Shown here: positions 1 through 25,100 of the stretch, in pieces
Numbering within the stretch: position 1 is the first letter of the stretch
Layout of the letters: the number at the start of each line of letters is the position of its first letter
Assembly: GCA_000004985.1 (NCBI GenBank)
Contig: GG738866.1
Strand: one strand, 5' to 3'
Length of the DNA: 64,000 nt
DNA from: Naegleria gruberi
Taxonomy: Eukaryota
Notes under the pieces: model-generated
The model's database searches: none
Told to the model about the DNA's origin: nothing
The model's input: only the letters and a program-made list of their open reading frames with translations
Position numbers and translations under genes: made by a program

Positions 1-2285
1 TTACCACAAGAACATCCAATACCATCACCATAACTGATCGTTCTGGCAATGGTCTAACCGCAATACCTCTCCAAATCGGTCGCCCATTCATTCAAGGTGA
101 AATTCCATCAGTGCCAGGTGTCAAATTTAATGGAACAATTATTACCTCACAAACTGAAGTAACCAACAGATATCCTGATGGTTCTGTCAAGTTTGCCATA
201 ATCTCTACCATTCTACCAAATATCCCTGCAAATTCCTTTGGCTATTTAACATTTTTCTCCACAACTCCACATGTTGGTTCTTCATGTTCAATAAGTGGCA
301 TGTTAAATGATCAACCAGAGTTGGAAGTAAAGATTAAACTGGAAGGAAATTCAACTGAGAGTAACATTAGTCTCAGAGATATGATTTCAAAAGGTTTATA
401 CAAGTGGACAACTAATGGACCTGTAAGATGTGAATTAATTGTTGCAGATCATTCTATTGAGAGAAAGGCAGATGTTGGATTGGGAGGCCCAAAATCATTT
501 AGACCAATCTTTCATCTTTCACATTGGAGTAATGGAAAGGTTCGTGTGAGGAGTATCTTGGAAAATTCAGTCATGGATACATTGCAAGATGTACAATATC
601 ATGTCTCAATTTATACAGGTGTCAGCAATCCTCAATTATCACACAATCAAGCAAATGTCACTCATTGGTTTGGTGCTCGTTGGACACGTATTAATTGGTT
701 TGGAGCTGAGCCAGAAATCAAATATGATCTCAATTACAATGTTGAATATTTGGCCTTGACAAACTATGTTCCAAATTATTCACTCAATGACACTTACACG
801 CCATCTCAAATCTCTTCATATTATAATACATTTTTAACAAGACCAAGAGGTATCTTTGAACAAGGTTTTTGGACAAAAGGAATGCCAACAACAGGAATGA
901 GAGATGACATTGGTGTCATGCCAGAATGGACTGCATACTGGTTGTGTAATGGAGATTGGAGAATGAGACATATAAATTTGATTCAATCTGATTTGGCAGG
1001 TGCTTGGAGAGCTCAATTCAGAGAATGGGATACCTCACTCTATTGGGATAGAAACAAGACAGTTTCTGCTATTGGAAAACCAATTTCAATCTATGCTCAT
1101 CCAACTTGGTGGTTCCCTAATAATGCCGATGTTTATGCTGGAGCATTGAATGTTCCAAAGATTACCAATCCATGGATTTTTGATGCCTCTCATCAAGTAA
1201 GTTTTATTTTCAAAAGTATTCTAATAATTGTTTCTAATAGCCTGATCCATTTTCAGTTCCTTACATGTTGAGTGGAGACTACTACTATTTGGAAAGTTTA
1301 CAATTTTGGGCAGCCATTGGTTGTACTAGAATGAATGGTAAGTTATTTTGGATCAGTTTCTAATAATTGAATACTTTCAGATGGTATCTATGGACGTGGC
1401 ATGAGTGGATATGCTGGAATTAATGATCAATTGAGAGGAATTGCATGGACTGCAAGAACTAGAATGTACGCTGCCATTCTCTCACCAGATGAATCCATTG
1501 AAAGATCTTTCTTCTATGAAACAATTTATGATGCCATTGCATATTGGGAAGGAGTGAGAGGAATTGATGATCCTCGTTTCAATACTCGTCCAAATTATCA
1601 ATGGGCAAGAAAAAACAATGCCTGGACATGGTCTCCATTAAGATTCTTTTTAAGAGATACAAATGGTAGAATTGCTGCTTTCTGGCAAGAGAGTATGATG
1701 TTAATTGTTTTGGGAATGATGAGAGATTTGGATTTCCCAGTTGAGCCACTATTGAGCGAATATCACAAGGTGTTAACAACTCAATTATATGCTACTGGAC
1801 ATGATTATCGTTATATGGCTTATTATTGGGCTTTTGTAATGCAAAATTCCACATACAGTTATAAATGGTACGAAACATGGAAAGAATTCAAAGAGCAAAA
1901 TGATGCACAACAAATTCAAAGAAGTCAAGATGCTGTAAATGGATGGTTGACTGGAAATTTCTATGCCAAAATTGCCTCATGTGCAAGTTCATTCCTTGTC
2001 AAGTACACTGGTGGTCCTGAATTATATGCTACTGCCAAGAAGGAAATTTATGACAAGTTCCCCATGTCTTTTGAATATAGATCTTTCAAAATTTATCCAA
2101 GACAAGATATTACACCAATATTTAGAGATGTTAGTACTATACCAAGACCAGATTCTTCATTGAATGTACCAGGAGGAGGTGGCCAAACCTCCAATCCAAA
2201 GAAGGCCATCTCTAGAGCTTCCAATGTTGTAATGAGTGCAGTTACAATGCTCATTCTTGTTATCTTTTCTGTTTTATTAAACTGA
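1..2285 (+). CDS. 5'-truncated gene for a putative secreted or GPI-anchored protein of unknown function. Exons: 1..1196, 1241..1337, 1381..2285.
   Basis: The frame is open from the window edge (codons begin at position 3) to a GTAAGT donor at 1197. A 44-nt intron (1197..1240) and a 43-nt intron (1338..1380) restore one continuous frame through to the stop at 2283-2285. The alternative readings hit stops. The C-terminus is hydrophobic (SAVTMLILVIFSVLLN) after a Gly/Ser-rich stretch, which suggests a GPI signal. No confident family assignment. Confidence 0.5.
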
Positions 2286-4957: not shown

Positions 4958-5321
4958 TTATTTATGATAAAAAGATTTGGAATACGTTGAACCTCTCTTA
5001 TAAAACTACTAGTATGGCTTTTTTAAAATTATTAAATATAATTATTAATAATCAATCTCGAGAAACGTGTCTGATACGACGTCGTTTTGATCGAATAGAA
5101 ACTGATATTGTTCTATTTCACCATGTTCAGAGTAGCAATATGATAACGGTAATTTGTTTCTCGAGGCAAGTTTATGAATGACAAATAATCATATTACCTG
5201 ATTCACTAATTTTCCTTGTACATTGGATGATTAAAATCAAGATTCCATCCATTATAATCACTCATTAATTGCAATAACAACATTACGTGGTGTGTTTGTA
5301 GACAATAGACAACTCAAAAAA

Positions 5322-7949
5322 ATGTTTCGTCTACCTCTACAGGAAACATTTAAAACATCATCACTAACACATCAGAGATCATCTTTAGCACTGTTCCGGT
5401 GTTCATCTCTTTCTCAACATTATCAATACTCTAGAATTTTCATTTTCATATCACTTTTATTATTGTCATGTTTGTTATCTTCCATAAATTCTCAAGAGTT
5501 TACATTGAATCCTCTCGAGGGAAGAATATCTACCATGCAGTTCATAAACAGACGTACAGTTTATGTTCATACAGATAAATATGTTTATTTGAGTGCTGAC
5601 AAGGGTGTTCACTTTCAAAATTTTAATCAAAAGGCTAGAAATTGTCAAGAAGCAAAATGTATTCAAACCATTGCTAGACATCCTTTTGATGATAACGTAT
5701 TTATTTTAATTTCTAATTTGAAAAAGTTGTTTTACATTTGCACAGATCTCAATTCTGCCAATGAATTTGACATTGATAGAATTAATTGTGTAGAAAGACC
5801 ATTTCCAAATGATAATTCTGATGCTAAACAAGCTCCGATTGTGACCAAAGTAGTTTTCCATCCAAAAATTCATAACACTTTACTAGTTTTAATGAGTAAC
5901 AATAGATTGTATCTCAGTGAAACTTTGGCTAGTAATTTCTACTTTTTAAAGTCAGGTGTTAAACAAATTTCATTTGCAAATTCTGAATCAAAACTCTATT
6001 CCGATACTCTCTTGTTAGGTATCAAGGAAAGTGATGGAATTAGCTATTTTTTCAATATGGACAGTCGTTCTAGAAATGATGAGGATGATAATGAGATTAT
6101 TCGCCATGCTAGAGAATTCATGATGTATGGACCATTCCTTTTCGTTGCGACCATTGAGGAAGCAACAGAAAAATACCAAAAAGAAAAATACATGGCCAAA
6201 CTCTTTGTTGGTACTGATAATGGACGTTCTTTCAATAGAGTTTCAATCTCTCAATCCACTCAAAACCATATCATTGAAAAATCATTCATTATTTTGGATG
6301 GAAGCGAAGGTGCTGTATTGATTAATGTTCAACAAGAACAATCATCAGCTACTTCCTCATCTTCAACTTCTTCCAAGTATGGTAAAGTTTTCATTTCAGG
6401 TAAGTTGATAATTTGAATATATAATACTTATATTCTTTTAGATGCTCGTGGTGTCAGATATAAACAAACATTATGGGATAACAGAAGAGATGGCAATCAT
6501 GCTGATTTTACCAAAGTCAAATCATTGGAAGGTGTTTATCTTGCCAATCAAGTTCAAACCTATGATATGAATACTATGGAGTTGTACGAATGTAACAATT
6601 GTAATGGCTATGAAGATTGTACAAGGAAATGTAAAACTAAAACTCTCATTACCTTCGACAAGTCGGTTTGGAGATACATTACACCACCAAAGTATGGAGC
6701 CAATAAGGAGTTAATCAATTGTCCAAGTGGTAATTGCAAGTTGCACCTTCATGGATTTTCTGCTGGTACTAATCCAAACTATCCAAGACTTCATTCACAC
6801 AAGGATGCAGTTGGTATCATTTTCGCAAATGGTAATGTTGGAGAATATTTATGGGAAGGAGGAACTATCAATACTTACATGAGTAGAGACGGAGGATTGA
6901 GTTGGACTGAAGTGGCTAAAGGTTCTCATGTCTATGAAATTCTTGATCATGGTGGAATTATGATGATTGCTGAGAATAATAGACCAACTGATACACTCAG
7001 GTACAGTTTGGATGAGGCCAATACTTGGGTAACAACCAATTTCACAGAACATCTCAGAACCTATAGAATTAATAAGATGTATGCCAATGAAAAGTTTGAT
7101 CAATTGGCCAGATATGCTCTAATTCATGGTTCTGCTGATACATCAGGAGATATTGTCATTCGTGTTGATTTTTCCAAGGTTCACCAAAGGGAATGCACTG
7201 GTATCAACAATCCATACGACCAAAACAGTGACTATGAATATTTCAAACCACACAACTATAACTCCAAGTGCTTACTGGGTAGAGTTGTTGAGTATACCAG
7301 GAGAAAGAGAACTTCCATGTGTTTCAATCCAAGTCTCACTGAAGGAAAACCTGTCAAGATCACAAATTGTGAGTGTACATATGCTGACTATGAATGTGAC
7401 TATGGATATGAGAAGAAGAGAATTGATGATGTCAAATTTAGTTGTGTAGCAATCAATGCCAAATTGGAAGAGGAATCAAAGGCTCCATCTCTTTCCTCAT
7501 GCCAAACAGAAAATTACTATAATGAATCTAGAGGATATGCCAGAATTCCTGGAAATACTTGTAATGGAGGTTTGAGCAGTCAATTAGATCCTATTAAGAG
7601 AGATTGTCCAAAATCAATGAGTAATTGGGCTGTATTCATTATTGTTCTCTTCTTTGTTATGGTATTGACTTTTGGTGCATTGCTTTTCTACAAACAAAGT
7701 GGATTTTTACAACAATTATTCAATCCTAACAAGATGAGATATAGATACAATCAGCTCATCAATGATATGAATACCCCTGATACTGCATTCGGTCGAGACA
7801 TTGAGAGAAATCAACCATCATCCTTCCAAGACAACAGAATTCAATCCGATGACGAAGATGATGAAGATTTTGGCCTTGATGTTATTGAGGAAGAGGAAGA
7901 AGCACCAGAAGAAATGCATCCAGGTTCTTTTGGATCATCTAAACATTAA
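5322..7949 (+). CDS. Vps10-domain (sortilin-like) sorting receptor. Exons: 5322..6399, 6442..7949.
   Basis: The GGTAAGT donor at 6400 and the TTTTAG acceptor at 6441 give a 42-nt intron in phase 1 and join ORFs 5292..6416 and 6525..7949 with no stop. There are BNR/Asp-box-like propeller blades (YMSRDGGLSWTEV, FVGTDNGRSFNRVS) and a 10CC module (CECTYADYECDYGYEK). It ends with a single TM (WAVFIIVLFFVMVLTFGALLFY) and an acidic tail. Position 5292 is GTG, so the first in-frame ATG at 5322 is used. The hydrophobic signal-like stretch starts about 38 aa downstream, so the true 5' end or an upstream exon is unresolved. Confidence 0.7.
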
Positions 7950-8145
7950 GCAGATCTGATAATAATAGATAGAAAAGTTCCGACATCCAATTCTTTATGT
8001 TCTACATGAGTGAACAAATTATTATTGAGCATGTTCGTTCAAGGAGAAAATGCACTGAACGAACATTACACACAATTAAATTCTCTATTTTTGTTACTCA
8101 GGGTTGGCGCCAATTTTACACACAAACACGCAAAAAAATAAGAAA

Positions 8146-11100
8146 ATGTCTTCCATATTTCACGTTCCAATCCTTATCCTTATTGTGCTTATTGCTTCAC
8201 AGTGGTGGTATTTAAATCAAGAAAGAACATTGAATCAATCATCATCACCAAATATCGATCTCGGCTTACTCTCAAAGGATTGTTCCTCTCAACTTGTTAA
8301 GAATTTCTACTTTGAGAAGGCTTTGAGCCAATATAAGGAAAAATGTCTTGTTGAAAAGAAGTGTGGTTCAGAATCATTAGAAGGTAGTGCTGAGAATGTA
8401 ATTAAGCAGATAGACGAATTAGTTTCCAATCAAAAAAAGCAAGCCTTGGAAAGAAGATGCAACAACCTTATTATTCATTCCGAAAATGTTCAAATTCTTC
8501 CAAAGCAAACAATTGTTGATCCAAAACTTGATGCAATTTGTGGTAATTCAACAGAATGCATTCAAACTGTTCATGAAATGATCATTTATCATCAGGCCTT
8601 TGCTTTTGCAGTTCAAAAGCTAAAGTTGGATCAAGAAAGTGTTAAGAGATTTTTACAATTACAAATCACCAATCTTGGAGAGAAGGCAAATTCAATTTTG
8701 GAATTTATCAGAAATCCTCAAGGTATTGAGGGTCCATCTGGTTTTTCCATTTCCTTGAAGCCAACACATTCCAGCCATCACTCATTCATCCAATCAGTTT
8801 TTTATGGTTTGATGGCATTGGCTTTGGGATGGTTGTATTTAATGTTCTGTACATTTGTTCAAGTAGAAGATGATTACTCGAAGAAAATGGCAGAGGCAAC
8901 TAGAGAGACAGATGAATTGAAAAAGAAATTGAAAGAGGCAACAGTAAAGGTTCTCGAAAAAGTTAAAGAACTCAATACTGAAAAGGAAAAATTAGAGCAA
9001 GATCTTTCAGATGAAAAGCAAACTTCAACAACATTGACAAGCGAGAAAAATCTACTAGAAAATGACCTTTCAACAATGACGACCAAGAAGAATCAATTAG
9101 AAAACGATTTAGCAAACGAAAAAAAATCTACAACATCATTGAGAACTCAAAAGAAAGAAATCGAGGACAAGCTTGAAAAATCCAAGAAGGAATACCAAGA
9201 CACTCTCAATAAGAAAGACAATGAACTAAAGAATACCAATGAAAAATTGAAAGTTGTGGAGAATGAGAATAAGCAATTCAAGAAGGATTTGGATACTAAG
9301 AGCAAGGATATTACCAACTTGGACAATTCGCTGAAGAAATCTAAGGAGCAAATTGCAGAACTTGAAAAATTGCATGCCCAACTAAAAAATGAAAAAGAAC
9401 AAACATTAAGAGATCTTTCGAATTGTAAACTCAGACTTGAAAAGGAGAATGAATTATGTTCTGCTCAACTCAAAAAGCTTGAACAAGAAATCAATAACCA
9501 AATCAATGATATGAAGCAAGTCGTCCAATCAAAGGTAGTATTAGAAAAACAACTCAAGAAAGTTGAGGAAATGCACAGTGAATTGAAGAGTGAGAAGGAC
9601 TTGCAGACCGAAGAATTTTCAAAAGAAAAGGAAAGATTGCTGGGAGAAATGAAGAATTTAGAAAATGAAGTAAAGAAACAAGCAAAGATTTGTGAAATAG
9701 AAAAGATCAACACTGAACTCTCTGAACAAATTCAACAATTATCATCTGAAAGAGATGCTATTCAAAACGCACTTAATGATGAAACTCAAAGATTAAACGG
9801 CCAAACAGAAAAGATCAGAAATGTATTGGTAGAGATCTCAACATTGAAGAATACAAATGAAGAACTTGAAGAAAAAATCAAATCTTTGGAGGAGGAAAGA
9901 TCAAACAAGGACCAAAGTATTGAATTTTTGCAAGAAGAAAGCAAGGTTCTATCTGAAACTGTTACAACACTTGAAACCAAATTGCAAGATATACATACAG
10001 AAGTTGAAGATATAAAGAAGCAATTGGAAGAAGTTGCATCTCTAAAGAAGCAATTGGGAGACAAGAAAATTGAATTGCAACAAATTAATGATGGCTTGAA
10101 TAATTTAGCTGTCCAACACCAAAAGGAATTGGAAAAAGAAAAACAAAAGATTGAAGAGTACGAAAGAACTATTACTGAACTCAAAAATTTACTTTCCGAA
10201 ATGAATAATGAGTTGATGGAAGACAAGTCAATAGAATTAGAGGCAGAACTGAAAGTTGTAAAGGAGTCTAACAGCAAGCTTTTGAAATGCATGGAAGAAA
10301 GAGATGAACAGATAACTAGCCTAGAGGAAGAAATTAAGGGTTTGAAGTCTCAAACCGAAACTCTTTCTGAAGAGGCAAAGAACTTGAAAGAATCATTGAA
10401 AGAAAAGGATAATGAAGTTGTGATATTGACAGAATTAGTGAAATCTGAAGATCAACTTTTGCAAGTTGACCAGGCTGAAATTAACAATTTGAGTAGTATT
10501 GTTAATCAAGCAGATGAAGGAATTACTTATCTTAAAAACGATTTGAATACTATTAGAACTGTTCTTGCTAGCACTGAAGAAAAGCTTAATAAGTCTGTAA
10601 AGGAGAAGGAAAGAATCTATGATGAATATGAAACTGTTCAAAGGGATGTAAAGAGATTAACAGAAGAAAAGCTTGAAATGGAGAAGGAAATCCAAATGTT
10701 AAAGCAAAGAAGCCCTCGTACATTCAAATCTTCACCATCAAGGGAGAAGGAAGAAAATAGGCGATTGAAGGAGAAGATTGAATTATTGGAAAAGAAACTC
10801 AAGTTATCTTTGAAAAAGATTCCATCTGATCAAAATCTCATCAACAACCTACCAATCATCAATACAACAGCTACCACGCCTTCCAGTTCTTCAACAAGTA
10901 CTTCACCAAGCACTGAACAGGATAAGGATGAATTAATCAAACGATTGAAGGAAAAGCTTGAAATTAAGGAAAACAAATTGAAGGCTGCCATTGTGAGTAA
11001 GCTTGAAGTTGTTGAAAGACTCAAAAACTATGAAGCAGATGCTCACTTCAGCACAGCTTCTGTTGGACCTGGAGCTAATCAACCACATCAGCAACCACAA

Positions 11101-11154
11101 CAACCAGTACAACAGAAAGTGGCAACTCCAAGAAATAACAAGAAGAATTTGTAA
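8146..11154 (+). CDS. Hairpin-anchored giant coiled-coil protein. Plus-strand paralog of the 22190..31034 gene.
   Basis: Position 8104 is a TTG alt start; the real ATG at 8146 gives MSSIFHVPILILIVLIASQWWYL, an N-terminal signal anchor. A Cys-containing approximately 200-aa loop follows (DCSSQLVKNFYFEKALSQYKEKC...). Then a second TM (FIQSVFYGLMALALGWLYLMFCTFV). Then about 750 aa of heptad coiled coil containing the KQAKICEIEKINTELSEQIQQLSSERDAIQ unit. A Q/P-rich tail follows. Confidence 0.7.
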   Translation: MSSIFHVPILILIVLIASQWWYLNQERTLNQSSSPNIDLGLLSKDCSSQLVKNFYFEKALSQYKEKCLVEKKCGSESLEGSAENVIKQIDELVSNQKKQALERRCNNLIIHSENVQILPKQTIVDPKLDAICGNSTECIQTVHEMIIYHQAFAFAVQKLKLDQESVKRFLQLQITNLGEKANSILEFIRNPQGIEGPSGFSISLKPTHSSHHSFIQSVFYGLMALALGWLYLMFCTFVQVEDDYSKKMAEATRETDELKKKLKEATVKVLEKVKELNTEKEKLEQDLSDEKQTSTTLTSEKNLLENDLSTMTTKKNQLENDLANEKKSTTSLRTQKKEIEDKLEKSKKEYQDTLNKKDNELKNTNEKLKVVENENKQFKKDLDTKSKDITNLDNSLKKSKEQIAELEKLHAQLKNEKEQTLRDLSNCKLRLEKENELCSAQLKKLEQEINNQINDMKQVVQSKVVLEKQLKKVEEMHSELKSEKDLQTEEFSKEKERLLGEMKNLENEVKKQAKICEIEKINTELSEQIQQLSSERDAIQNALNDETQRLNGQTEKIRNVLVEISTLKNTNEELEEKIKSLEEERSNKDQSIEFLQEESKVLSETVTTLETKLQDIHTEVEDIKKQLEEVASLKKQLGDKKIELQQINDGLNNLAVQHQKELEKEKQKIEEYERTITELKNLLSEMNNELMEDKSIELEAELKVVKESNSKLLKCMEERDEQITSLEEEIKGLKSQTETLSEEAKNLKESLKEKDNEVVILTELVKSEDQLLQVDQAEINNLSSIVNQADEGITYLKNDLNTIRTVLASTEEKLNKSVKEKERIYDEYETVQRDVKRLTEEKLEMEKEIQMLKQRSPRTFKSSPSREKEENRRLKEKIELLEKKLKLSLKKIPSDQNLINNLPIINTTATTPSSSSTSTSPSTEQDKDELIKRLKEKLEIKENKLKAAIVSKLEVVERLKNYEADAHFSTASVGPGANQPHQQPQQPVQQKVATPRNNKKNL

Positions 11155-11327
11155 ATAATGTACCAATAAAAGAAATTGTTTAATATACTGTAAATCGTAT
11201 TGTTAATATAATAATAACTAAATTTTATTTTTTTGTAAATACACAAAAATATTATGGCGCCATTTTTTAGACTTCCAGCAAAAATTGGATTGTCAAAAGT
11301 GAAGCCTAAAAATCAAACAAAAAAAAA

Positions 11328-11936
11328 ATGGCACTCTCCTATCAAACTGCAACAGAATACATAGCCTCACCAATGTATAGGAAGGCTTCATCAATGCCTG
11401 AATACTTTGATACAGACAGTGAAAATAAGGAGGAAATTACACAAGACCCATTCGAAAACATTATCAATAATACCATTGATGAGGAAGAAGATGATTGCTC
11501 CGATCCATTCTCGGAAGTAGACGAATTTCTTGATAACGAATCTGATCCATTCACAATATCTGATATTGATCCCTTCTTGTTGAAAGATGTTGATCCATTC
11601 CTTGTAGATGACAGAGATCCATTTTATGAAGTTGATGAATTTGATGAGGATGAGGTGGATCCATTTCTTGTGGAAGATACTGACGTTTTTAAGGCTAACT
11701 CATTATTGGATGCTGGAGTAGTGACAGATCCTTTCTTGGCAGAGCATGGAGTTAAATGTTTTGAGGAATATGATGGAGATGATCCATTCTTAATAGAAGA
11801 TGAAGAATATGATGAGAAGGAAATGCATTCTAAAGAAGAGAGCAGAAGTATCTTTGAGTTGGTTTTTACCCTTCACAATTTAGGCTTACTTTGTTTGATG
11901 GTTGCTTTATTAATTCTTTTGGTCAACCACAAATAG
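11328..11936 (+). CDS. Tail-anchored acidic protein with nine DPF motifs.
   Basis: ATG at 11328. Nine DPF tripeptides are embedded in D/E-rich sequence (QDPFENI, SDPFSEV, SDPFTIS, IDPFLLK, VDPFLVD, RDPFYEV, VDPFLVE, TDPFLAE, DDPFLIE). There is a single C-terminal TM (LGLLCLMVALLILLV) followed by NHK. Confidence 0.6.
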   Translation: MALSYQTATEYIASPMYRKASSMPEYFDTDSENKEEITQDPFENIINNTIDEEEDDCSDPFSEVDEFLDNESDPFTISDIDPFLLKDVDPFLVDDRDPFYEVDEFDEDEVDPFLVEDTDVFKANSLLDAGVVTDPFLAEHGVKCFEEYDGDDPFLIEDEEYDEKEMHSKEESRSIFELVFTLHNLGLLCLMVALLILLVNHK

Positions 11937-14190: not shown

Positions 14191-17100
14191 ATGAAACAGT
14201 TACTCTCACCGAAATCTATATTACTTTTTATAATACTATCTATAGCTTCTATTGGATGGATGGTTATTGGCCAAGAGTTGCCCTACTCTTCATCATGGTC
14301 AATTACCAACTCGAATATTCAAACATGTAATACTATACGTGGTCAACAGGATGATTACTTTTATATGGGAGGTAAATTCAGTGGCAGTATTGATACAAGT
14401 GCTATAGGAGTCATATCTCCCGATAGATTTAATAACTCTGTAGTTTTGGCAACATCATTAACGAGTGAGGCGTATGCACTTAAGGTTCAAAAGTCAACTG
14501 GTAAGGTTGACTCATCTATTCAATTTGCACCAAGTGGCAATACAGAAACGATTCAAAGTTCAGAAATTATTTCAATAGGAACGAGTACTCAATTTCAAAT
14601 ATTTGCAGGAATTATCAATACAAATCAAGGAATTTTCATTTCAAAGTTTAACACCAATGGAATGGAATGGACACAAACCTATTTATTTTCGAGTGGAAAT
14701 TACATTACAGTGAGAGATTCAAAAGTGGTTGATACGAGTATTGTCATTGTAGGAACATACAGAGGAGACATTTCCATTAGTAATGGTTCAATTGCTCTCA
14801 CTTCATCCTCGAGTCAAGATTACGAAAACATGTTCATTGCTATTTTGGATATGACTGGATCTATTCAATATATCTATACTAATAATGGTAATAATGCTAA
14901 AGTCATACCACAGAATTTGCACTTGTCTTCAAATGGTGAATTTTGCTATGTTATGGGAGTTTTCAGCGGATCAACTTTGTCATTCACCAAATCCACTAGC
15001 TCATCAGAACAGCTAACTCTCACTTCAACAACTTCTACAGATCAGTACGATTTATTCCATCTCAAATATTCCATCACTAGTAAGGAGTTGGTTTGGCTCA
15101 TGGGCACTACAGGACCTCATCAGATGGACTATTCATACAAGATTGTTGGCAGCTCACCTTCGACCATTTATGCCTTCAGGGATATTATCATTGATCAGGG
15201 ATATAGTGAAAGCAGTGATTGTGGCAGCCAAACAGATGTTCCTATTGCAACTCTGACAAGGAATTTATTCACACTTCTCTCATCGAATGTTCTCTTTGGT
15301 GGAGCATCAGCCACAGGTTCTCAGAGTTTGAGCTTTTTCAAAGCTTTGGATTTTGCAGGATTTTCCAATTCAATTCTCTTCGATAATGGAACTACTTCAT
15401 CTGTTATGAACATTTCCAGATCGACACCACTAACTCTCTCTTCGACAGGATTTACTACCTGTCCTAACAAACAAGCTCTGATGAACTATTCCACAGAGTA
15501 TACATTGAATTATGCCAGTGGTTCCGAGACTATCCTTCTCAAATCCTATGTGAGCATACCAAAGTTATTGTTCACTTCCAATTACAATGTTGGTGTAATT
15601 AATTATGCTGGTATTACATCCACTTTGACATTTAACATGCCAAGTACACTGCTGAGTGTTATCGATAAGAATCTGGTTGTTGATGTTGGTGGAACGAAAA
15701 GGCCAGTGAAGAATTCCAATAATGTCTATACGGCAGACTTGTTTTCAACCACTGTAGGATGGAATAATATCACTATTTATTTCAATAATACTGCTCAGAA
15801 CAGGTATGATTTGATTTCTATGAATTCTGTCAAGACTTTCTTCTTTGATGATTCTTTGGTTATCAGTATTCAGAATAGTACAATTTTATTCAATAGCAGT
15901 ACTTTGAATAATGGTAGAGGTACACTAACATTGACAGGATTATTGAATTCCACGTATAATTTCCCACAGGAATATGTCAGCTCTATTATGTGTAGAGTGG
16001 CTCAACAAAATTTTGCTACCAATATTGATGGTAATCAGATTACATGTCAAAATGTTCCATTTTCAGAGAGGAACACGACAGTAGTACTTGTCTATAGATA
16101 CAGCAACTCTATTTTCTATAACATTTCAAGAAGTTTGGATTTGAGTTTTATTGAAACACGGACACTTACAACTTCTTCACAATACAGGGTGATTACAACA
16201 GATGAGCAAACCAAGGGATCGTTTGCTTTGTCTTTAACAATCGGTAAAACAATGGGCTCTTTGGATGTCAAATTGCAAGCAACAAATCAAAATGGAGCTG
16301 CTTCTTATTTACCATTTACAGTTTCATCAGGTACAAGTATTTCTGCAACCTTGGCAGTGGCTCAATTTGAAAAGGCAAATTTGAAATTTATGGTAAAATC
16401 TCAGAATGACTATGTGGATTTTACCAACACAATTTCTATTCAATTCTTGAAGCAAGTCAAGTTTACATCCTTGTCGAGTACCATTGATAATTCGAGACAA
16501 ATGAAGACCGCATTCAGTATTCAACCAAACCTGATAGATTCATTGAAATCTCAGCTAACTTGCCAATATAATGAGAGTCCAACATTGAGAACTGCTTTGA
16601 ATAGTACTGATAATACATGTAATATTGACAATCGATTCCTTTCCACAAACAATACTCTCCAATTATTGCTTAATATGGGAAATAATGTTTATTTACAAAT
16701 ATCAGACAGTATTTCATTGACATCTCCCTCACTACCAACAATATCCTTCCTATTTACTCCTAATTTTGGTATCAGTGGATTTACTAATATTACAACCGAA
16801 ATTACATCTCAAGATTTGATATTTGAACAATTGAAAAGAAATTTACAAATAGAAATTAATTCCATTCGTTATACACCAACTGTTGGGTCAGATGGAAAGG
16901 TTTCATTTCCACTTGTAACCTCAGTAGCCGGCTGGAATAATTTGACAGTTCTTGGAAAATATTCAACCAATGACACTTCATACTCTGTGATCAGCACTCA
17001 GAGTAAGATTTATTTCTTTAATACTCCACAAACAAATATTTTCACTTTCCCTAATGGAAATATCACACTCCTCACTCCATCCAGCAGTAGAAATTTCATG

Positions 17101-20100
17101 ATTGACTTGGTATTGAGTTCTCCCTTTGATATTCCTTATACCTTACTGAGTCCAAACAACTTTTTCTGTAACATATTTGGAGAGTCATATAGTGCCCAAT
17201 TTGTTTCCAGTACCAGAGTTCAATGTCAAAATGTAGTAAGCAGAGAAGGTGAAACTGATTCTTTTATCACAACTTCTATTCGAAATACCACATTTGAAAT
17301 ATCTTCGAGAAGTCTGTTCACCTTTGTTAAAACAAGAGAAATCAAACCTGTTGGAGTGTCTCTCATTCAATCTACTGATTTTTATATTGGAACATTGCCT
17401 CAAACACAAGCAACCTATTCGTTGCAGATTAATATTGAAGATAGCTTGTTCACTGCTCTACAAATTGAAAATACTCAAAAACTTGCTATTCAACTTACTG
17501 ATCTGCTAACCAATCAGAAACAAGTCAGATTCCCACAAATTACCAGAGGATTAAACATGTCTACTCTTTCACTCAACTTGGACGTTGCCACTTCCCAGTC
17601 CATTTTCAAATATGAAATTAGAGTATTGTTTAAAGGACTGGAGATTTCTCAAGTTGCATTAAAGTATCTTCTTGTGAGAGAATCACCAATTGGAAAGGTA
17701 ATTTCCTCCAGAGATTCCACTGATAATTTACTCATCAACATGCCAAGAATTTTATCAACAGCAACTTCAATTAGTGACGATGAAAAGTTAATTATGGACA
17801 GAGTGTACTGCTCTCTTGGAGATTCAACTCTTTCCAAGGTTACCTATTCTGTGAGTGGTGGTATTCAATGTAAATTTGCAACTGATTTCACATCAACACA
17901 AACCAAATCAGTTCAACTCTTCATGTCCATCAATACTGTGGCCACAAATAGTTCAGTTATCAAAATATCCTCCAACTCACAACAAGCATATCCAATCTAT
18001 TGTTATTCAATTCCTCACTATTTACCAACTGTTTGTTCTTCAAAGGGAACTTGTAAGCAAACTGATAACTGTACATGTACCAACAATTTCCAAGGAAATG
18101 ATTGCAGTTTCACCCAATGTTTTGGAATTGCATCCACTGATAAGACTGTCTGCAGTGGATACGGTCAGTGTCCAACCTCAAATAATTGTGTTTGTAATGC
18201 AGGATTTAGTGGCACAAGATGTGAAAATAAGGTCATGTATGTTTCTGAGGACAAATCATGGCTATCCACCAGTGAATCTATGAGCAGTTTACCAAGATCG
18301 CAACTCTCTGCTCTAATAGAAACAGAGAGTTTGTCCAAAGTTGAATGTGCATCTTTATTAGCAACTGCATCTATTGATACCATTGGAGTTGATGCATTTT
18401 GTTTTGTGAACTCTGTTGATATTGTAATCATGTTGAACAGGAACGTTATGAACAATACTGTATTACTATCTTCCTCGACTATTGGTAGCATCCTTTCGAA
18501 ATCATTTTCACAATATCAAGTGCTTGACACTAAAGGAAAGTCAACCAGTCCAGAAATTCTATTAAGAACTAGTTTCTCAAGTGTGAATTTCCCTGCTGTG
18601 GTTGAACCGCTCATTGTCACTGCATCACCTCTCTCAAATTTAGGTCTATCATGGCAAAGTGATGATCCAACTATTAACAGTCAACTTTCTTCATTTGCCA
18701 ATCAGTCAATTATCAAACTGAATTTAGGAGCAAAAACAAGACAAAATGTAATTTCTAATGGAGCTGTTAATTTGGTTTTGCAAGTTGCCGATTCAACATT
18801 CAATACTTTGACCAAATATTCCACTAAATTGCTTTTGAATCAATCTTCCAACTCTGGAGAAGCAATATTCAATTATGGAGGATCTCAAATTGAATGCCAA
18901 TCCTTTGCCTCATGTGATATTGCCTTTAGTGTTGCTCCTATTAAGGGGTCTTCTATTAGGTCATCTTTCAATCCTGACATTGGAAATATAACTACAAACT
19001 ACATTCATAATTTGAAAAGTTTTGCAGAGGGTTGTTCTACTGTATATTCCCTGCGTAGCAGTGAGAGCAAACAACTGTGTATTAAGATTAGAGATAAGGG
19101 TGTTATTCAATACTATTTGGATGTCAATACTCAACAAGATAATTCCATTGTAGTCACTTTGAGTCAATTCAACACTTCCTCTAAAGTATATTCAATTATT
19201 ACCAGTTCTAACTCTGATATTATACAATTGATTAATTTGAATACTAACACTTCTGTGCAAGGCGCGAAGGATGGAAGTAGTTCAGCAGTATATTTCAAGG
19301 GAATCAAAGAGCAAGAACCATACGAGATTAGATTTACTAGTTCATTAGGAAAGGCCTCCCTCAAGATTCAATATTCCACAAGTATGCAACTCAAGCTCTT
19401 AACATTCATTCCTAAAGTAATGGGAAGAAAATCTTCATTGATATTGTCTTCTCTGGTTGACTCTGATAGCAGCACAGTTCAACAAGTTGATTTCCTGTTA
19501 ACAAAGAAAGGCCAATCACAATCCACGTCTCTTCCAATAGTTCAACAATATAATGATCTGACCTTTTCACAAGCCCTGTTGAATGCTTCACTTTTAGATA
19601 GTGGATCTTTCTACATTCTGAGAGTTCAATCAAGGAATGCTAAAGGACATGTAACCTATATTGAACAATCTTTCTATGTACAATTAGAACCAAACTATAA
19701 TATCAATTGTGCTATTACTCCAAAAGAAGGAATTGCTTATGAAACAGAATTTACAATTTCATGTTTATCCAATAATTTAGATTTAGATACTTATCAATTC
19801 CTCATAACGAATGGTACTCATCAATTAGAGCTTTCCAAAGGAAGAAAGAGAGCATTCTTTACTAGAATTGGATTTTTACAAAATGCCAAACTTCAAGTCA
19901 AAACTAATGATGTTTGGAATAGTGAAAAGACAACAGAGTTCCCAATCCAACTCAAACATCCAAAACAAGTTTATCAAACATCTTTAGAATTTTATCAATA
20001 TTTAACAAGAAAAGTTCAGGATCTTCTCAATGAAGAAGTTTCTCCAAACAGTTTAGGATTTGATTATGTCAACAGTGTCATCACCTTCATGTCAATTCTT

Positions 20101-22182
20101 GGTGCTGACTCGAGTATTGTACCAAATTATGAATATAGAACAGAGTTGGGTTTGAGCTTGCTGGATATATTCGAAAAAGTCGTTGGCTATGCTAAACAGA
20201 ATAAGGATTCTACGTATATTGGAAGAAGTTTACCGATAATGAATCAATTCTTGCAACAATTTTCAAATACCACACAAACAAATAGAGATAGAGTCTATGG
20301 ACTGATCAACTCTACGTTGGATATATTACAAGACTTTTCATCAACTAATCCAAGTAGTAGTATTAATGATATATTTACTATTGTTGACAGAATTATTCCA
20401 CTAGTAGCAACTGATTTACAAACTCAATTATTCAACAAATTGAGAATAGTTAATCAACAGAATTTGTTTGGAAAGATGAAGAATGGTTATTTGGTTTCAA
20501 ACTTCTCCAAACTTTCCAATACTACTCTTGAAAATTATCAAATCATTAACTTGAATGTGTTGGGAAGAAAAATTTCAGAGCCAATCAATCTCGGTACACT
20601 TTCACTCAATCTTCCTTCACAAATTAGTTCAGATTCTTTGAATTCTCTATTTGAAGTGAGTGCTCTAATTTATCAAACCAAATCCAAAACAAGTAGAACA
20701 TTACAACAAGCTACCTCTATTCCTAATGTACAAGTTGCACTAACGAAGAATTCCATTCCACTTACCGATTCTTCACTAAATGTCAACATTACCTTCCCAA
20801 TCCAATTGAATAGTAAGACAAGAGCCCAATGTAGATCATTTTCCTTCCAGGAAGAACCAAAGAATCACACAACATTCCAATCCGAATCAGCAGTGGTATG
20901 CTTAGTGGCACTCTCAGATTTGAATAGAAACTTGTATATTTATACCTATGAAGGTATTTTTATAGGACCACTGCCACAAAATAGTGATAATGTGAAAGGT
21001 CCACTTCTTCAGGATAACACCTTGACCATAGCTTTGGCCACCATTTTGTCAACTGTTGGTTTGATATTTATATGCTGTTCACTCCTGGTATTGTTGTTCA
21101 TTATTGGAAAATGTAGAGGAAGAGGAAAGAAGGAAAATACACCAAATATGACAGAGTTTACCTATAAGGCATCTGGATCTCATTCTCCAATTGGAATTTC
21201 AGATCATTCTTCATCTGATAAGAATTCTGATACTTCATCAGAAAAACAACAAACTGAAAAGAATATCAATCAACGAGTGACTGAGAATGTTGAGCTATTG
21301 AATGGACAATATCAATTATTAGAAACCATTTCCATTCACTCCAACTATACTCTCTATAGAGCTAATAATATTAGTACAGGTCAGGTTGTGTGTATTAAGA
21401 AGATTGGATTTTCTTCTTTTGAGGAAATTAATTCATCATCCTCTGTTATTGTGAAAGAGTATACGAACATGTCTCGTACTCAACATGCTAATATTGTCAA
21501 GTTACACGAGGTGTTTGTTGATACAAGTCTTAAGGCAGTTTGTTTAGCTCTTGAATATTTCGAGCTTGGAAATTTGAATGAATTACTACTCAAGCGAATT
21601 CAACAAAACCAAATATTTGATGAGATTCATATTGGTCAGATATTGTATCAACTTTCCCAAGCTCTTTCGTATCTTCATGATGAATGTGGATTGTGTCACA
21701 GGAATATCAGGTTGGAAAACATATTTGTAAGACAATTTACACCACAAAAAATTGATATTTGTTTGGGTGAATTTACAGATTCGAGATCCAGAAACTCACT
21801 CAAAATAGAACATGATGTGCAAGACCAATCGTTTGGATCTGCTATAAGTTCTTATAAGTTTGGTAATTTTACCAAAGCTGTGAAGGAAAATGCAATCAAA
21901 TCTACCAGTGACCAGTTTACGTCTGAAGATACATTCCAGGTTGCGTGTGTAATGTACAAACTAATGTCGTTTGATATGGAGAGTAAGGTCAATTCATTAT
22001 TTGAGGAGTATGAGTTTGAAAAAGACGTATTCACATTGCTAGAATCAAGGATACACTCATCATATTCTAGTGAAATAGTTTCCATCATCTTGTCAATGTT
22101 TGCTCGAGAAGAAAAAAATCGTCCAACAATGAACCAAGTCACCAATTTATTGGGCAATGTATTCAAGTTTGAAACACAATAA
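14191..22182 (+). CDS. Giant (2663 aa) type-I membrane receptor with a cytoplasmic pseudokinase domain.
   Basis: It is a single 7992-nt ORF with an ATG at 14191. It starts with a signal peptide (MKQLLSPKSILLFIILSIASIGWMVIG). The ectodomain is about 2250 aa, S/T/N-rich, with many N-x-S/T sites and two tenascin-type EGF modules around nt 18030-18230 (CSSKGTCKQTDNCTCTNNFQGNDC...CSGYGQCPTSNNCVCNAGFSGTRCE). One TM lies at about 21025-21110 (TIALATILSTVGLIFICCSLLVLLFIIGKCRGRGKK). A kinase-like domain of about 270 aa follows. It has VCIKK (a VAIK-like Lys), HRNIRLEN instead of HRDLKPEN, LGEF instead of DFG, and no GxGxxG loop. Confidence 0.8.
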   Translation: MKQLLSPKSILLFIILSIASIGWMVIGQELPYSSSWSITNSNIQTCNTIRGQQDDYFYMGGKFSGSIDTSAIGVISPDRFNNSVVLATSLTSEAYALKVQKSTGKVDSSIQFAPSGNTETIQSSEIISIGTSTQFQIFAGIINTNQGIFISKFNTNGMEWTQTYLFSSGNYITVRDSKVVDTSIVIVGTYRGDISISNGSIALTSSSSQDYENMFIAILDMTGSIQYIYTNNGNNAKVIPQNLHLSSNGEFCYVMGVFSGSTLSFTKSTSSSEQLTLTSTTSTDQYDLFHLKYSITSKELVWLMGTTGPHQMDYSYKIVGSSPSTIYAFRDIIIDQGYSESSDCGSQTDVPIATLTRNLFTLLSSNVLFGGASATGSQSLSFFKALDFAGFSNSILFDNGTTSSVMNISRSTPLTLSSTGFTTCPNKQALMNYSTEYTLNYASGSETILLKSYVSIPKLLFTSNYNVGVINYAGITSTLTFNMPSTLLSVIDKNLVVDVGGTKRPVKNSNNVYTADLFSTTVGWNNITIYFNNTAQNRYDLISMNSVKTFFFDDSLVISIQNSTILFNSSTLNNGRGTLTLTGLLNSTYNFPQEYVSSIMCRVAQQNFATNIDGNQITCQNVPFSERNTTVVLVYRYSNSIFYNISRSLDLSFIETRTLTTSSQYRVITTDEQTKGSFALSLTIGKTMGSLDVKLQATNQNGAASYLPFTVSSGTSISATLAVAQFEKANLKFMVKSQNDYVDFTNTISIQFLKQVKFTSLSSTIDNSRQMKTAFSIQPNLIDSLKSQLTCQYNESPTLRTALNSTDNTCNIDNRFLSTNNTLQLLLNMGNNVYLQISDSISLTSPSLPTISFLFTPNFGISGFTNITTEITSQDLIFEQLKRNLQIEINSIRYTPTVGSDGKVSFPLVTSVAGWNNLTVLGKYSTNDTSYSVISTQSKIYFFNTPQTNIFTFPNGNITLLTPSSSRNFMIDLVLSSPFDIPYTLLSPNNFFCNIFGESYSAQFVSSTRVQCQNVVSREGETDSFITTSIRNTTFEISSRSLFTFVKTREIKPVGVSLIQSTDFYIGTLPQTQATYSLQINIEDSLFTALQIENTQKLAIQLTDLLTNQKQVRFPQITRGLNMSTLSLNLDVATSQSIFKYEIRVLFKGLEISQVALKYLLVRESPIGKVISSRDSTDNLLINMPRILSTATSISDDEKLIMDRVYCSLGDSTLSKVTYSVSGGIQCKFATDFTSTQTKSVQLFMSINTVATNSSVIKISSNSQQAYPIYCYSIPHYLPTVCSSKGTCKQTDNCTCTNNFQGNDCSFTQCFGIASTDKTVCSGYGQCPTSNNCVCNAGFSGTRCENKVMYVSEDKSWLSTSESMSSLPRSQLSALIETESLSKVECASLLATASIDTIGVDAFCFVNSVDIVIMLNRNVMNNTVLLSSSTIGSILSKSFSQYQVLDTKGKSTSPEILLRTSFSSVNFPAVVEPLIVTASPLSNLGLSWQSDDPTINSQLSSFANQSIIKLNLGAKTRQNVISNGAVNLVLQVADSTFNTLTKYSTKLLLNQSSNSGEAIFNYGGSQIECQSFASCDIAFSVAPIKGSSIRSSFNPDIGNITTNYIHNLKSFAEGCSTVYSLRSSESKQLCIKIRDKGVIQYYLDVNTQQDNSIVVTLSQFNTSSKVYSIITSSNSDIIQLINLNTNTSVQGAKDGSSSAVYFKGIKEQEPYEIRFTSSLGKASLKIQYSTSMQLKLLTFIPKVMGRKSSLILSSLVDSDSSTVQQVDFLLTKKGQSQSTSLPIVQQYNDLTFSQALLNASLLDSGSFYILRVQSRNAKGHVTYIEQSFYVQLEPNYNINCAITPKEGIAYETEFTISCLSNNLDLDTYQFLITNGTHQLELSKGRKRAFFTRIGFLQNAKLQVKTNDVWNSEKTTEFPIQLKHPKQVYQTSLEFYQYLTRKVQDLLNEEVSPNSLGFDYVNSVITFMSILGADSSIVPNYEYRTELGLSLLDIFEKVVGYAKQNKDSTYIGRSLPIMNQFLQQFSNTTQTNRDRVYGLINSTLDILQDFSSTNPSSSINDIFTIVDRIIPLVATDLQTQLFNKLRIVNQQNLFGKMKNGYLVSNFSKLSNTTLENYQIINLNVLGRKISEPINLGTLSLNLPSQISSDSLNSLFEVSALIYQTKSKTSRTLQQATSIPNVQVALTKNSIPLTDSSLNVNITFPIQLNSKTRAQCRSFSFQEEPKNHTTFQSESAVVCLVALSDLNRNLYIYTYEGIFIGPLPQNSDNVKGPLLQDNTLTIALATILSTVGLIFICCSLLVLLFIIGKCRGRGKKENTPNMTEFTYKASGSHSPIGISDHSSSDKNSDTSSEKQQTEKNINQRVTENVELLNGQYQLLETISIHSNYTLYRANNISTGQVVCIKKIGFSSFEEINSSSSVIVKEYTNMSRTQHANIVKLHEVFVDTSLKAVCLALEYFELGNLNELLLKRIQQNQIFDEIHIGQILYQLSQALSYLHDECGLCHRNIRLENIFVRQFTPQKIDICLGEFTDSRSRNSLKIEHDVQDQSFGSAISSYKFGNFTKAVKENAIKSTSDQFTSEDTFQVACVMYKLMSFDMESKVNSLFEEYEFEKDVFTLLESRIHSSYSSEIVSIILSMFAREEKNRPTMNQVTNLLGNVFKFETQ

Positions 22183-22189
22183 AAGTTTA

Positions 22190-25100
22190 TTATTTCCTTG
22201 GTGATCTTGGTGAAATTTGATCGTAGGAAACAGCAGCAAAAGCTTTTTGCAAGCTAGCTAACTTGATCTCAATTTCATCTAATAATTGAGGAGGTGAAGA
22301 AGGAATTGGGTAAAAATAATCTTCTCTCAAAGGTGATTGTGGAATATCCATATGCCCTTGGGAGATTGATAAACCTTCTTTAGTTGTTTCTGCCATGATA
22401 GTAGCTAATTGCTCAAGTTGGCCAATAGCAAATTTCAAATCATTCTCGAGTTTCTTTGTGTAAGCTTCCAAACCTTGTATACCGTCCGTAAGAGTCTTGA
22501 CGGTTTCTTGTTGGCGTAATATTTCCCCATTCAGATTTTCAATTGTTCCTCTTAGTTCTGAACTTTCCTTTGCGTTTTGGTTTTTTAACTTTTCCAACGC
22601 TTCTTGCTTGTCAACAAGTAGCTCCTTTTGAGATTGAGATAATTTTTCATTCTCTTGGAGAATACCATGTAAATCTTTCATAGACTCCTGCAAGAGTTGA
22701 ATCTCCTTCTTTGCCTGACTCTTTTCCTTCTCTAAAATTGATCGTAGCTCGTCTTCTCTTATTTTCATTTCAGCATCTGCTTTTTTCTTCTCATTAAATA
22801 CCTTTTGCATTTCATCTTTTAGCAACTTTAAAGTTTCTGTCTGCAAGAAAATACCTTCTTCTAGCTGTTTTGTTTTTTTCCTTTCCTTTTCTAAATAATC
22901 TTTAAATGTTTCCAAATCATTCTTAAGGCGCCCAATATCTTCAACCGATTTTTCTTGATATTCTTTAAACTCCTCTCCCTTGGTTCTCACTTTTGATTTT
23001 TCCTTTTCCAGCAATTCTGCTTTTGAATTAACCAACTCTTTAAGCTTGTTTGTTTCTTCTTTTTCAACCAAAAGGTCCATCTCAATCTTGCTCAAGTCAA
23101 TTTCCATATTCTGTTTATACAGGTTCATTTCCTTTTCAAATTCTTTCTTTTCATTCATAATTTTTTCTATCTCTTTGTTTTTTTGTGTAAGCTCTTCTTC
23201 AAATTTCTTAAGGAAGTTGTTTAAATCTCCAATTTCTTTCTGATTTTGATTTTTCAAGTCTGTCAAGCTTCTATTTTCCTCTGAAAGTTCGTTTTCTATA
23301 TGCTTCAAACTCTCTACCACCTTCTCAAGTTCTTGTTTAACTGCTGATTCTCTTTGTAACTTGGATTCACCTTCTAAGTTTGCACGTTCAATGCCTTCAA
23401 GAGATTTTTCTAATTCCTGCTTGACATTTGCGAGCTCATTGGATAAATCTTCTTCTTTTTGATTCTTTTCAATCATCAACTGTTTGATATCAACAAGATC
23501 TTTGTGTAATTCTCTTACAGAGTTACTTTCTCTAGTGATTTGTTCTTCCCTTTCGCTTAACTTTTCTTTAAGGGAGCATATCAAGTTCTCCTTTTCAGAT
23601 AATTGAGTGGATAGATTGGCCTTCTCAGATATTATAACGGCCAATTGTTCTGTTGCATTCTTGGCCTCCTCTTCAAGAATTTTAAGCTTGATTTCTCTTG
23701 AAGATTTATCTTCCAAAAGAGAATTGAGTTCCTCTTGAAGATTTAATATATCTTTTTTCAGATTTGTCAAGTCTTGTTGCAACTCACTGTTTTCGTGCAT
23801 TAAATCTCTCACCCTATGCTGTTGTGCCTCTATGAAACTCTCAGTTTTGACTCTTGATACAGTATTCTCAGATACGATTTCTTTTAGTCTCGAGTTGTCT
23901 TTTTCGAGATCATTAACACGGTTTTTGAGCTTTTCAGTTTCATCCAAGATTGCTTGCTTTTCATCTTTTTCAGATTGGATATTTTCTGTTAGTGAGATTA
24001 CCAAGTTAGATTTTTCTTCGTGCAATTTATCAATAGTAGTTCTCAAGTTTTCAACTTCACTCTCGCTTGAATGAAGAATACCTTGTATTTTAGCTTTAAT
24101 GTCTTCTTTTTCTTTCTTGAGGTCATCCCTTTCCTTTTCGATAGCAGACGATTTGTTTTCCAATTGTTTCAACTTTCCATCTGTATCTGAAATAACTTTT
24201 TGTAGATTTTCAATGTTCAAATCAGAAACTTCCAATTTAGAACATAAATCCTTATTAATATCTTTGAGAGCTACAATCTCATTATTAAGAACAGAACATT
24301 CTTGTTGTAATTGGTCATTCTTCGATTTCAATTCTTCTAGAGAGGATGTAATATCTTGAATCCTTGCTTCCGTATCCAATAACTTTTCAGTAAGGGTGGT
24401 ATTTTGGGAAATAAAATTAATTTTCTCATTTTCTGCAATAGTAGTCATTTCTATTAGCTGTTGTTCGAGCTCTTTGTACTTCTGCATTTGATGTGACAAA
24501 TCAGACTTTGAATTTGAAAGCTCGTTATCGAGAGCTTCCTTTTGTGAAAGTAGTTGTAGATTTTCATCCTTGGTGGATTCAATTGTGTTTTGCTGATCTT
24601 GGACTTGTGAGGTGCAGTCATCAAGTGACTCCTTTAATTTTAGAATTTCTGATTGTGATTGAGAGTACTTTTCAGTTAACTCTTGATTTTTCTCCTCTTG
24701 GACTTTTCTAAATAGATCAAACTCCTTGCATTTAGAATTGATCGATTCATTCATAGAAAATAATTTCGATTCCTTTTCCTGTAAGAGTTCTTCTTTTTCT
24801 GCAATATTATTTCCCAAGGTTAATATTTTATCTTTCAACATATCCATTGTGGAATTCTTGCCGTAAAGCTCATTTTTCATTCGATTAAGTTGATCTTCCA
24901 AATTGCTTAGTGAGTTTGTAAGCTCGTTGTTGGTAGTTTCTAATGTTTGCTTTTTCTCAAAAAGGCCAGTGTTAATATTTTCCATTTCACAAATCTTTGC
25001 TTGTTTCTCTTCGACAATTTTCTTTTCCTTCATCCTCCAACTTCCTCATTTCTTCCAACAGTCTTTCCTTTTCTTTAGAAAATTCTTCACTCTTCTTTTC

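Follow-up and report, generated by a model that had tools for sequence, protein, structure and literature searches.

Many DPF tripeptides in an unstructured region are found in the C-terminal domain of Eps15/Eps15R, and comparable regions carry DPW in epsin and DPF in Dab2 and AP180. Eps15 is a soluble protein that also has EH domains, a coiled coil and UIMs; its motifs have small or polar flanks and include close DPFx2-3DPF triads for the µHD of FCHo. To our knowledge, isolated DPF in acidic disordered regions have one well-established reader, the platform site of the AP-2 alpha appendage, and classical recognition by the alpha-ear, µHD and EH domains relies on a proline-stabilised turn. A single DPF is bound weakly by the alpha appendage (Kd ~200 µM) and arrays gain avidity for it without strict spacing; the µHD of Fcho1 requires a DPFx3DPFx2DPF triad with tight 2-3-residue spacing (PMC4921775).

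Repeated Phe motifs are also found in other trafficking proteins. In Arabidopsis, SCAMP5 carries x-P-F motifs, separated by acidic residues, on its cytosolic N-terminal tail, where they are read by an EH domain of the TPLATE complex (PMC8144573). SCAMPs have four transmembrane domains (TMDs), two or three NPF and a fold-bearing core. The tail of FAM21, a soluble subunit of the WASH complex, is long, disordered and acidic, and its about 21 'LFa' acidic Leu-Phe repeats bind retromer. Tail-anchored proteins of the ER, inserted by the GET pathway, are in turn a topological class and not a homologous family, with targeting rules from yeast and mammals: in yeast, ER tail-anchored proteins have a TMD with GRAVY >1.75, and mammalian ones are directed to the ER via GET3/TRC40 preferentially when their TMD is hydrophobic and their tail charge low (PMC5450235). 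No paper joining a DPF motif with a tail-anchored protein was found in the library searched.

The window analysed here, a stretch of 64,000 nucleotides of Naegleria gruberi DNA, encodes a protein with a lineage-restricted, membrane-anchored D-x-F array, which is a variant of this known kind of interaction module. Like Eps15, it has many DPF in an unstructured region, but it has no folded domain and ends in a C-terminal membrane anchor, and its motifs, some of them D-[EVILM]-F variants, follow a regular 8-residue pitch and are flanked by strongly acidic and hydrophobic residues. With SCAMPs it shares the integral membrane position and the exposure of repeated x-P-F motifs between acidic residues, while differing in its single tail anchor and its 11-13 D-x-F. 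The resemblance to FAM21 is one of concept, a long disordered acidic tail with many short Phe motifs that would allow multivalent binding to a trafficking complex; in FAM21 these are L-F in acidic runs and not D-P-F. There is no homology to SCAMPs or FAM21, and none to Eps15-type proteins is detectable by sequence in Pfam, HMMER and PDB searches. The protein may work like the DPF/DPW regions of Eps15 and epsin in principle, but we do not count it among that group, since the companion modules and motifs, which are a defining feature, are absent.

The coding sequence (11328..11936, + strand) is intronless and complete, with an ATG at 11328, 202 codons without interruption and a stop codon that ends at 11936. 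The coordinates, the length of 202 aa and the nine DPF given in the first-pass annotation all agree with the sequence and the ORF translation. Upstream, an AT-rich intergenic spacer (11155..11327, + strand) runs from the stop codon of a coiled-coil ORF to the ATG and presumably contains the promoter and 5' UTR. Whether the ORF could be a 3' exon belonging to this coiled-coil gene was considered, and the idea was rejected, since the stop codon and the spacer intervene; it is also contradicted by the separate gene models in N. lovaniensis and by a different upstream gene in the environmental locus described below.

A word-indexed search returned two relatives, a strain copy and the N. lovaniensis protein C9374_003881. 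The former encodes 201 aa on a 1775-bp ENA metagenome contig with 99% DNA identity, so this copy comes from another N. gruberi strain. The latter is a hypothetical protein (P0002) of 221 aa with 31-40% identity. A profile search of the same database found nothing beyond these two, whereas exhaustive HMMER against 1.84 billion cluster representatives gave one addition, a 188-aa protein (P0009, E 8e-19) with 48% identity to the N. gruberi protein, encoded on a 2-kb ENA environmental Naegleria-like contig (L003). In JGI metagenomes, back-translated motif patterns matched 600 times, in no case at a relative. A Pfam scan of the protein detected no domain, and the family profile had no sequence match in the PDB at E<=10. 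Since the word-indexed, profile, HMMER and JGI searches gave no other relatives, the family is, on the evidence of these searches, known only from Naegleria-like organisms. No N. fowleri protein was among the matches, which is compatible with absence or with missing annotation. No N. gruberi entry for the ORF appeared in any protein search run (NCBI; word-indexed, profile, HMMER), and the gene is unannotated in the NEG-M reference proteome, while the N. lovaniensis annotation does call its orthologue.

Comparison between the two N. gruberi strains showed 0 substitutions and one in-frame 3-nt deletion in the 609-nt coding sequence, against 10 substitutions and out-of-frame indels in 1162 nt of flanks. 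The upstream spacer carries 3 substitutions and 2 indels. From the flank divergence, 5.2 substitutions would be predicted in the coding sequence, where none was observed (P~0.005). Relative to the environmental orthologue, dN/dS was about 0.24, with dS near saturation. The start position is also kept in that orthologue (MTYQTASQY in N. gruberi, MALSYQTATEY in the environmental protein). Because of the orthologues, the dN/dS value, the invariance of the coding sequence between strains and the BTB gene downstream, the ORF is, as judged by sequence comparison, a real coding gene that is under constraint and confined to Naegleria.

The D-x-F array (11445..11789, + strand, aa 40-154) consists of nine DPF (aa 40, 59, 73, 81, 89, 97, 111, 134 and 152), one DVF (aa 119) and two DEF (aa 65 and 103), in total 12 D-x-F in a polyacidic and predicted disordered region. 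The first-pass annotation had counted the nine DPF correctly and overlooked the other three motifs, and its spacing of 10-20 residues was imprecise, as the DPF-to-DPF distances are 19, 14, 8, 8, 8, 14, 23 and 18. When all D-x-F are included, the spacings in order are 19, 6, 8, 8, 8, 8, 6, 8, 8, 15 and 18, and spacing list and motif counts delimit a dense core (11502..11690, + strand, aa 59-121) with a pitch of 6-8 residues. Most prolines (9/11) are located inside DPF and most phenylalanines (12/16) inside D-x-F. The acidic context that had been described is borne out by 58 D/E versus 11 K/R in the whole protein and a net charge of about -48 in the cytosolic part.

Chance arising from composition does not account for the array. 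Shuffling the cytosolic part 200,000 times with its composition kept never produced more than 4 DPF, versus the nine observed, and for each of the three orthologues 0/100,000 shuffles matched the observed DPF or D-x-F count. In addition, no DPF occurs in the ~18,700 aa that make up the window's other ORFs of at least 150 aa. Nor is the array a recent tandem repeat at the DNA level: Tandem Repeats Finder detected only a 27-nt ATTTGATGA run, and the codons of the nine DPFs vary (GAC/GAT, CCA/CCC/CCT, TTC/TTT).

Orthologues lacking the periodicity, which by the first-pass annotation would refute its reading, were looked for, and both orthologues keep the array at the same pitch. All three proteins have 11-13 D-x-F, mainly 6-8 residues apart, and a terminal TMD, and the net charge of their cytosolic part is -41 to -48. 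The number of DPF falls to 7 and 6 in the two orthologues, with D-[EVILM]-F at the remaining aligned sites. Where D-x-F sites align, their D and F are identical in 22/22 cases for the environmental protein and in 22/24 for N. lovaniensis, compared with 59/132 (45%) and 40/126 (32%) of the other cytosolic positions, respectively, although the alignment is partly anchored by those same residues. Given the shuffle counts, the conservation of D and F, the absence of a DNA repeat and the varied codons, the motif array is under selection.

Motif anatomy was counted over the 36 D-x-F instances of the three orthologues. The middle residue is P in 22/36, E in 7/36 and V/I/L/M in 7/36, that is, not proline in 14/36. 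Upstream, position -2 is D/E in 25/36 and position -1 is often V/I, whereas after the F there is L at +1 in 15/36, V/I at +2 in 11/36 and D at +4 in 20/36. These biased flanks point to an octad as the repeat unit, approximately D-P-F-L-Φ-[DE]-D-x, with the consensus D-P-F-L-[VI]-[DE]-D-x in the N. gruberi core (aa 59-121), and the bias after the F suggests a longer and different recognition unit. The same core contains two composite DPFxE[VI]DEF units, and composite D[PVM]F-x-E-x-DEF units are common to the three lineages. The class of motif tends to persist at orthologous sites, with DEF aligned to DEF, DVF to DLF and one DPF to DMF. In N. lovaniensis, E/D is often found after the F in place of L-Φ, so D-x-F alone is truly invariant.

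A hydropathy scan detected a single hydrophobic segment, at aa ~174-199, and no signal-peptide-like N-terminus. Hydropathy and AlphaFold together place the C-terminal transmembrane helix at 11859..11924 (+ strand, aa ~178-199), and it is followed only by the presumably luminal three-residue tail NHK and the stop codon (11925..11936, + strand). With the Kyte-Doolittle scale, the best 18-aa window is aa 182-199 with a mean of 2.57, and across the three proteins the best windows reach means of 2.57, 3.21 and 2.74 and are followed by no more than one basic residue. The TMD is followed by 0-3 residues in all three, the orthologues ending with RN or directly with the TMD (…FFRVI). AlphaFold2, run on the three-sequence alignment, gave pLDDT 46-59 without secondary structure for aa 21-170 and a helix with pLDDT >90 for aa 171-201. 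Both the unstructured region and the single C-terminal TM anticipated by the first-pass annotation are thus reproduced in the model. With a single TMD within ~30 residues of the C-terminus and the bulk of the protein N-terminal to it, the protein is by prediction a member of the tail-anchored topological class. Its anchor would be ER-type and not obviously plasma-membrane, since the TMD hydrophobicity of 2.6-3.2 and the tail charge of at most +1 indicate the ER by yeast and mammalian rules (PMC5450235), that is, by opisthokont rules applied to a heterolobosean.

Ahead of the array, a conserved N-terminal segment (11337..11411, + strand, aa 4-28, YQTATEYIASPMYRKASSMPEYFD) was recognised by alignment and regex, and it is kept only in part in N. 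lovaniensis. It has a basophilic RKxSS site followed by a FFAT-like core, EYFDTDS (aa 25-31), within PEYFDTDSE (11397..11423, + strand, aa 24-32). Compared with the E[FY][FY]D[AC]xE-like core, the corresponding site is EYFDDNN in the environmental orthologue and is absent from N. lovaniensis; the D-x-F repeats themselves do not match FFAT. If functional, the site at aa 24-32 would suggest a membrane-contact role.

The description with the best support is that of a disordered and multivalent array of short linear motifs tethered to a membrane, which probably serves as a docking strip for trafficking machinery. We infer the insertion route, the organelle and the partner from these properties. 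The C-terminal helix with its 0-3-residue tail would be inserted post-translationally into the ER by a GET/TRC40-type route, by opisthokont rules, with onward traffic from the ER being possible. The remaining ~170-180 residues would stay cytosolic as an unfolded polyanion with a net charge of -41 to -48, presenting 11-13 D-x-F, two thirds of them DPF, at a pitch of ~8 residues. Each D-x-F would be a weak ligand of a hydrophobic, basic-rimmed pocket on a folded partner domain, and the array would provide avidity and rapid rebinding, by which either the partner is concentrated on the membrane or the DPF protein is captured as cargo. Among possible partners, a module of the appendage type from the clathrin/adaptor machinery is the leading candidate; the AP-2 alpha platform is the sole well-established reader of isolated DPF known to us. 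Docking to an adaptor appendage, with AP-2 alpha as the lead candidate, is proposed tentatively, at a little under an even chance.

The AP-2 reading, put forward in the first-pass annotation, is plausible, and it is the identity of the motif that points to it. In its strict form, it is weakened by the replacement of proline in 14/36 instances, by a conserved unit that seems to be a longer octad, by the absence of companion endocytic motifs and domains, and by the ER-type anchor, the ER not being the site of action of AP-2. A regex scan with patterns from ELM and the literature found no FxDxF, WxxF, NPF, clathrin box or gamma-ear motif in any orthologue, and no ENTH, ANTH, EH or UIM domain was detected by the Pfam scan. 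From the same regex scan, FxDxF, WxxF, NPF, clathrin box and gamma-ear/GAE were discarded as motif classes for poor or inconsistent fit across orthologues, together with DxxLL, [DE]xxxL[LI], LIR, SIM and FFAT arrays. W-based motifs of the delta-COP/Dsl1 type and kinesin W-acidic motifs were excluded, as the cytosolic domains of the N. gruberi and environmental proteins have no Trp. The more specific proposal of a first integral-membrane Eps15-like hub, in which the tail-anchored array would recruit, nucleate or sequester AP-2, another adaptin ear or the ancient TSET complex, either on one particular organelle or where ER and plasma membrane are in contact, is regarded as unlikely.

Several other readings of the array were weighed against appendage docking. 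The whole octad [DE]-Φ-D-P-F-L-Φ-[DE] could be recognised by a non-appendage partner, a lineage-specific or so far unlinked domain, the match to AP-2 being coincidental. The conservation past the tripeptide, with D/E at -2 (25/36), L at +1 (15/36), V/I at +2 and D at +4 (20/36), the exchange of proline for V/I/L/M/E, the composite D[PVM]F-x-E-x-DEF units that the three lineages share, the lack of companion endocytic motifs and the confinement of the family to Naegleria all favour such a reader. However, regexes for LIR, SIM, FFAT, DxxLL, gamma-ear and clathrin box fit inconsistently across orthologues, we know of no motif class that fits the octad, and the frequent E/D after the F in N. lovaniensis leaves D-x-F alone truly invariant, so that this reading is possible but on balance doubtful. 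It is improbable that the reader is another DPF/NPF-type endocytic module, namely EH domains (Eps15/Pan1/EHD-like) or a TSET/TPLATE µHD, for which the protein would be membrane cargo or anchor, as NPF-bearing SCAMP5 is for the AtEH1/Pan1 EH domain. Zero NPF occur in all three proteins, the D-[VILME]-F variants should be poor EH ligands, and no DPFx2-3DPF is present in any orthologue, the minimum gap being 3-5 residues; the regular 8-residue pitch leaves the FCHo µHD triad unmatched. EH domains, for their part, reportedly bind DPF as well. Also in favour of such a module, the coat repertoire of N. gruberi is rich and includes a complete TSET with all six subunits (PMC4031984) together with a muniscin-like µHD protein (PMC4824007), muniscin µHDs read DPF arrays (PMC4921775), and a membrane protein with paired, acidic-spaced NPF binds the TPLATE-complex EH domain (PMC8144573).

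Readings that need no dedicated partner fare less well. The cytosolic domain might act by its bulk properties as a membrane-tethered polyanion, be it an electrostatic brush, a sink for cations or basic proteins, or a sticker-and-spacer condensate scaffold with Phe as generic stickers. Such a role would agree with the conserved extreme net charge of -41 to -48, with the lack of a predicted fold and with the fast evolution of the linkers (32-45% identity), but it does not need the exact D-x-F register, whereas at aligned sites the D and F stay invariant amid drifting acidic neighbours, 9/11 prolines are within the motif and the pitch is kept in three lineages; we give it little credence. That the ORF is not expressed, with the DPF pattern as a by-product of composition or a decayed repeat, would explain its absence from the N. 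gruberi reference annotation. Against this, the frame is intact in three lineages at 31-48% identity with start and stop positions kept, dN/dS is 0.24, the one in-frame indel is the only coding change between strains, the gene is called in the N. lovaniensis annotation, no shuffle out of 100,000 reproduced the motif count and no DNA tandem repeat was found, which makes a non-expressed ORF extremely improbable.

If appendage binding is true, the soluble Eps15/epsin hubs would have a membrane-bound equivalent in a lineage far from animals and fungi, with a bearing on the age of the DPF-appendage code and on how coat assembly sites are specified. Should it in addition act as a hub, that code would be older than the split of the major eukaryotic lineages, in a membrane-anchored deployment that is not known from animals, fungi or plants. 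Whatever the mechanism, a conserved gene is missing from the N. gruberi reference annotation, and Naegleria has a lineage-specific tail-anchored family, which might matter for the pathogen N. fowleri should an orthologue be present there. The family also offers a clean natural case of a motif array held by selection while the linkers drift.

Regarding the genomic neighbourhood, a BTB gene lies downstream of the DPF gene in the three loci, adjacent in the window and on the environmental contig and ~9.4 kb further in N. lovaniensis. LETM1 is near the DPF gene in N. lovaniensis and 24 kb away in the window. Synteny of the upstream genes with N. lovaniensis was not detectable, only the downstream BTB gene and the nearby LETM1 being shared. 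Orthology has some support from synteny. Four neighbouring ORFs are exact N. gruberi proteins, namely EFC44788, EFC44791, EFC44793 and (clustered) EFC44794. The nearby genes are functionally unrelated and comprise a split sortilin/Vps10, a 1016-aa membrane coiled-coil, the BTB gene, EFC44788 and a 2663-aa EGF/TM/kinase. Upstream of the DPF orthologue, the environmental contig carries at 2..985 a gene with 64% aa identity to the window ORF 31402..34221 (- strand), which lies 20 kb away in N. gruberi; this shows a local rearrangement between the two species, with the BTB linkage retained.

Less than 2 kb from the DPF gene, the 135-aa EFC44788 (13427..13834, + strand) is a second small protein predicted to be tail-anchored, with a coiled coil, a C-terminal hydrophobic segment and no significant Pfam match. 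On the opposite strand, a chain of coiled-coil ORFs of 947, 1091, 468 and 466 aa (22190..31034, - strand), without Pfam match, is probably one giant gene or a few. Its internal repeats have near-identical segments (e.g. ...EEFSKEKERLL.EMKNLENEVKK...QAKICEIEKINTELSEQIQQLSSERDAIQ) in common with the 1016-aa ORF just upstream of the DPF gene (8104..11154, + strand), and this paralogy coincides with a strong AT skew of that region, from -0.27 to -0.36. A sortilin/Vps10-domain receptor extends across two adjacent ORFs (5292..6416 and 6525..7949, + strand), which match positions 2-252 and 275-444 of Pfam Sortilin-Vps10 as well as Sortilin_C and would fit one gene with a short intron. Similarly, an Hsp70 is split across two ORFs (44534..45472 and 45556..46272, - strand; Pfam positions 1-218 and 241-527), probably by an intron, and its C-terminal part seems short for a full Hsp70. 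Finally, the 2663-aa protein is encoded by a single ORF (14191..22182, + strand) and has a receptor-kinase-like architecture: its N-terminus is signal-like, EGF repeats of the teneurin type occupy ~aa 1280-1350, and besides a TMD there is a protein kinase domain at the C-terminus.
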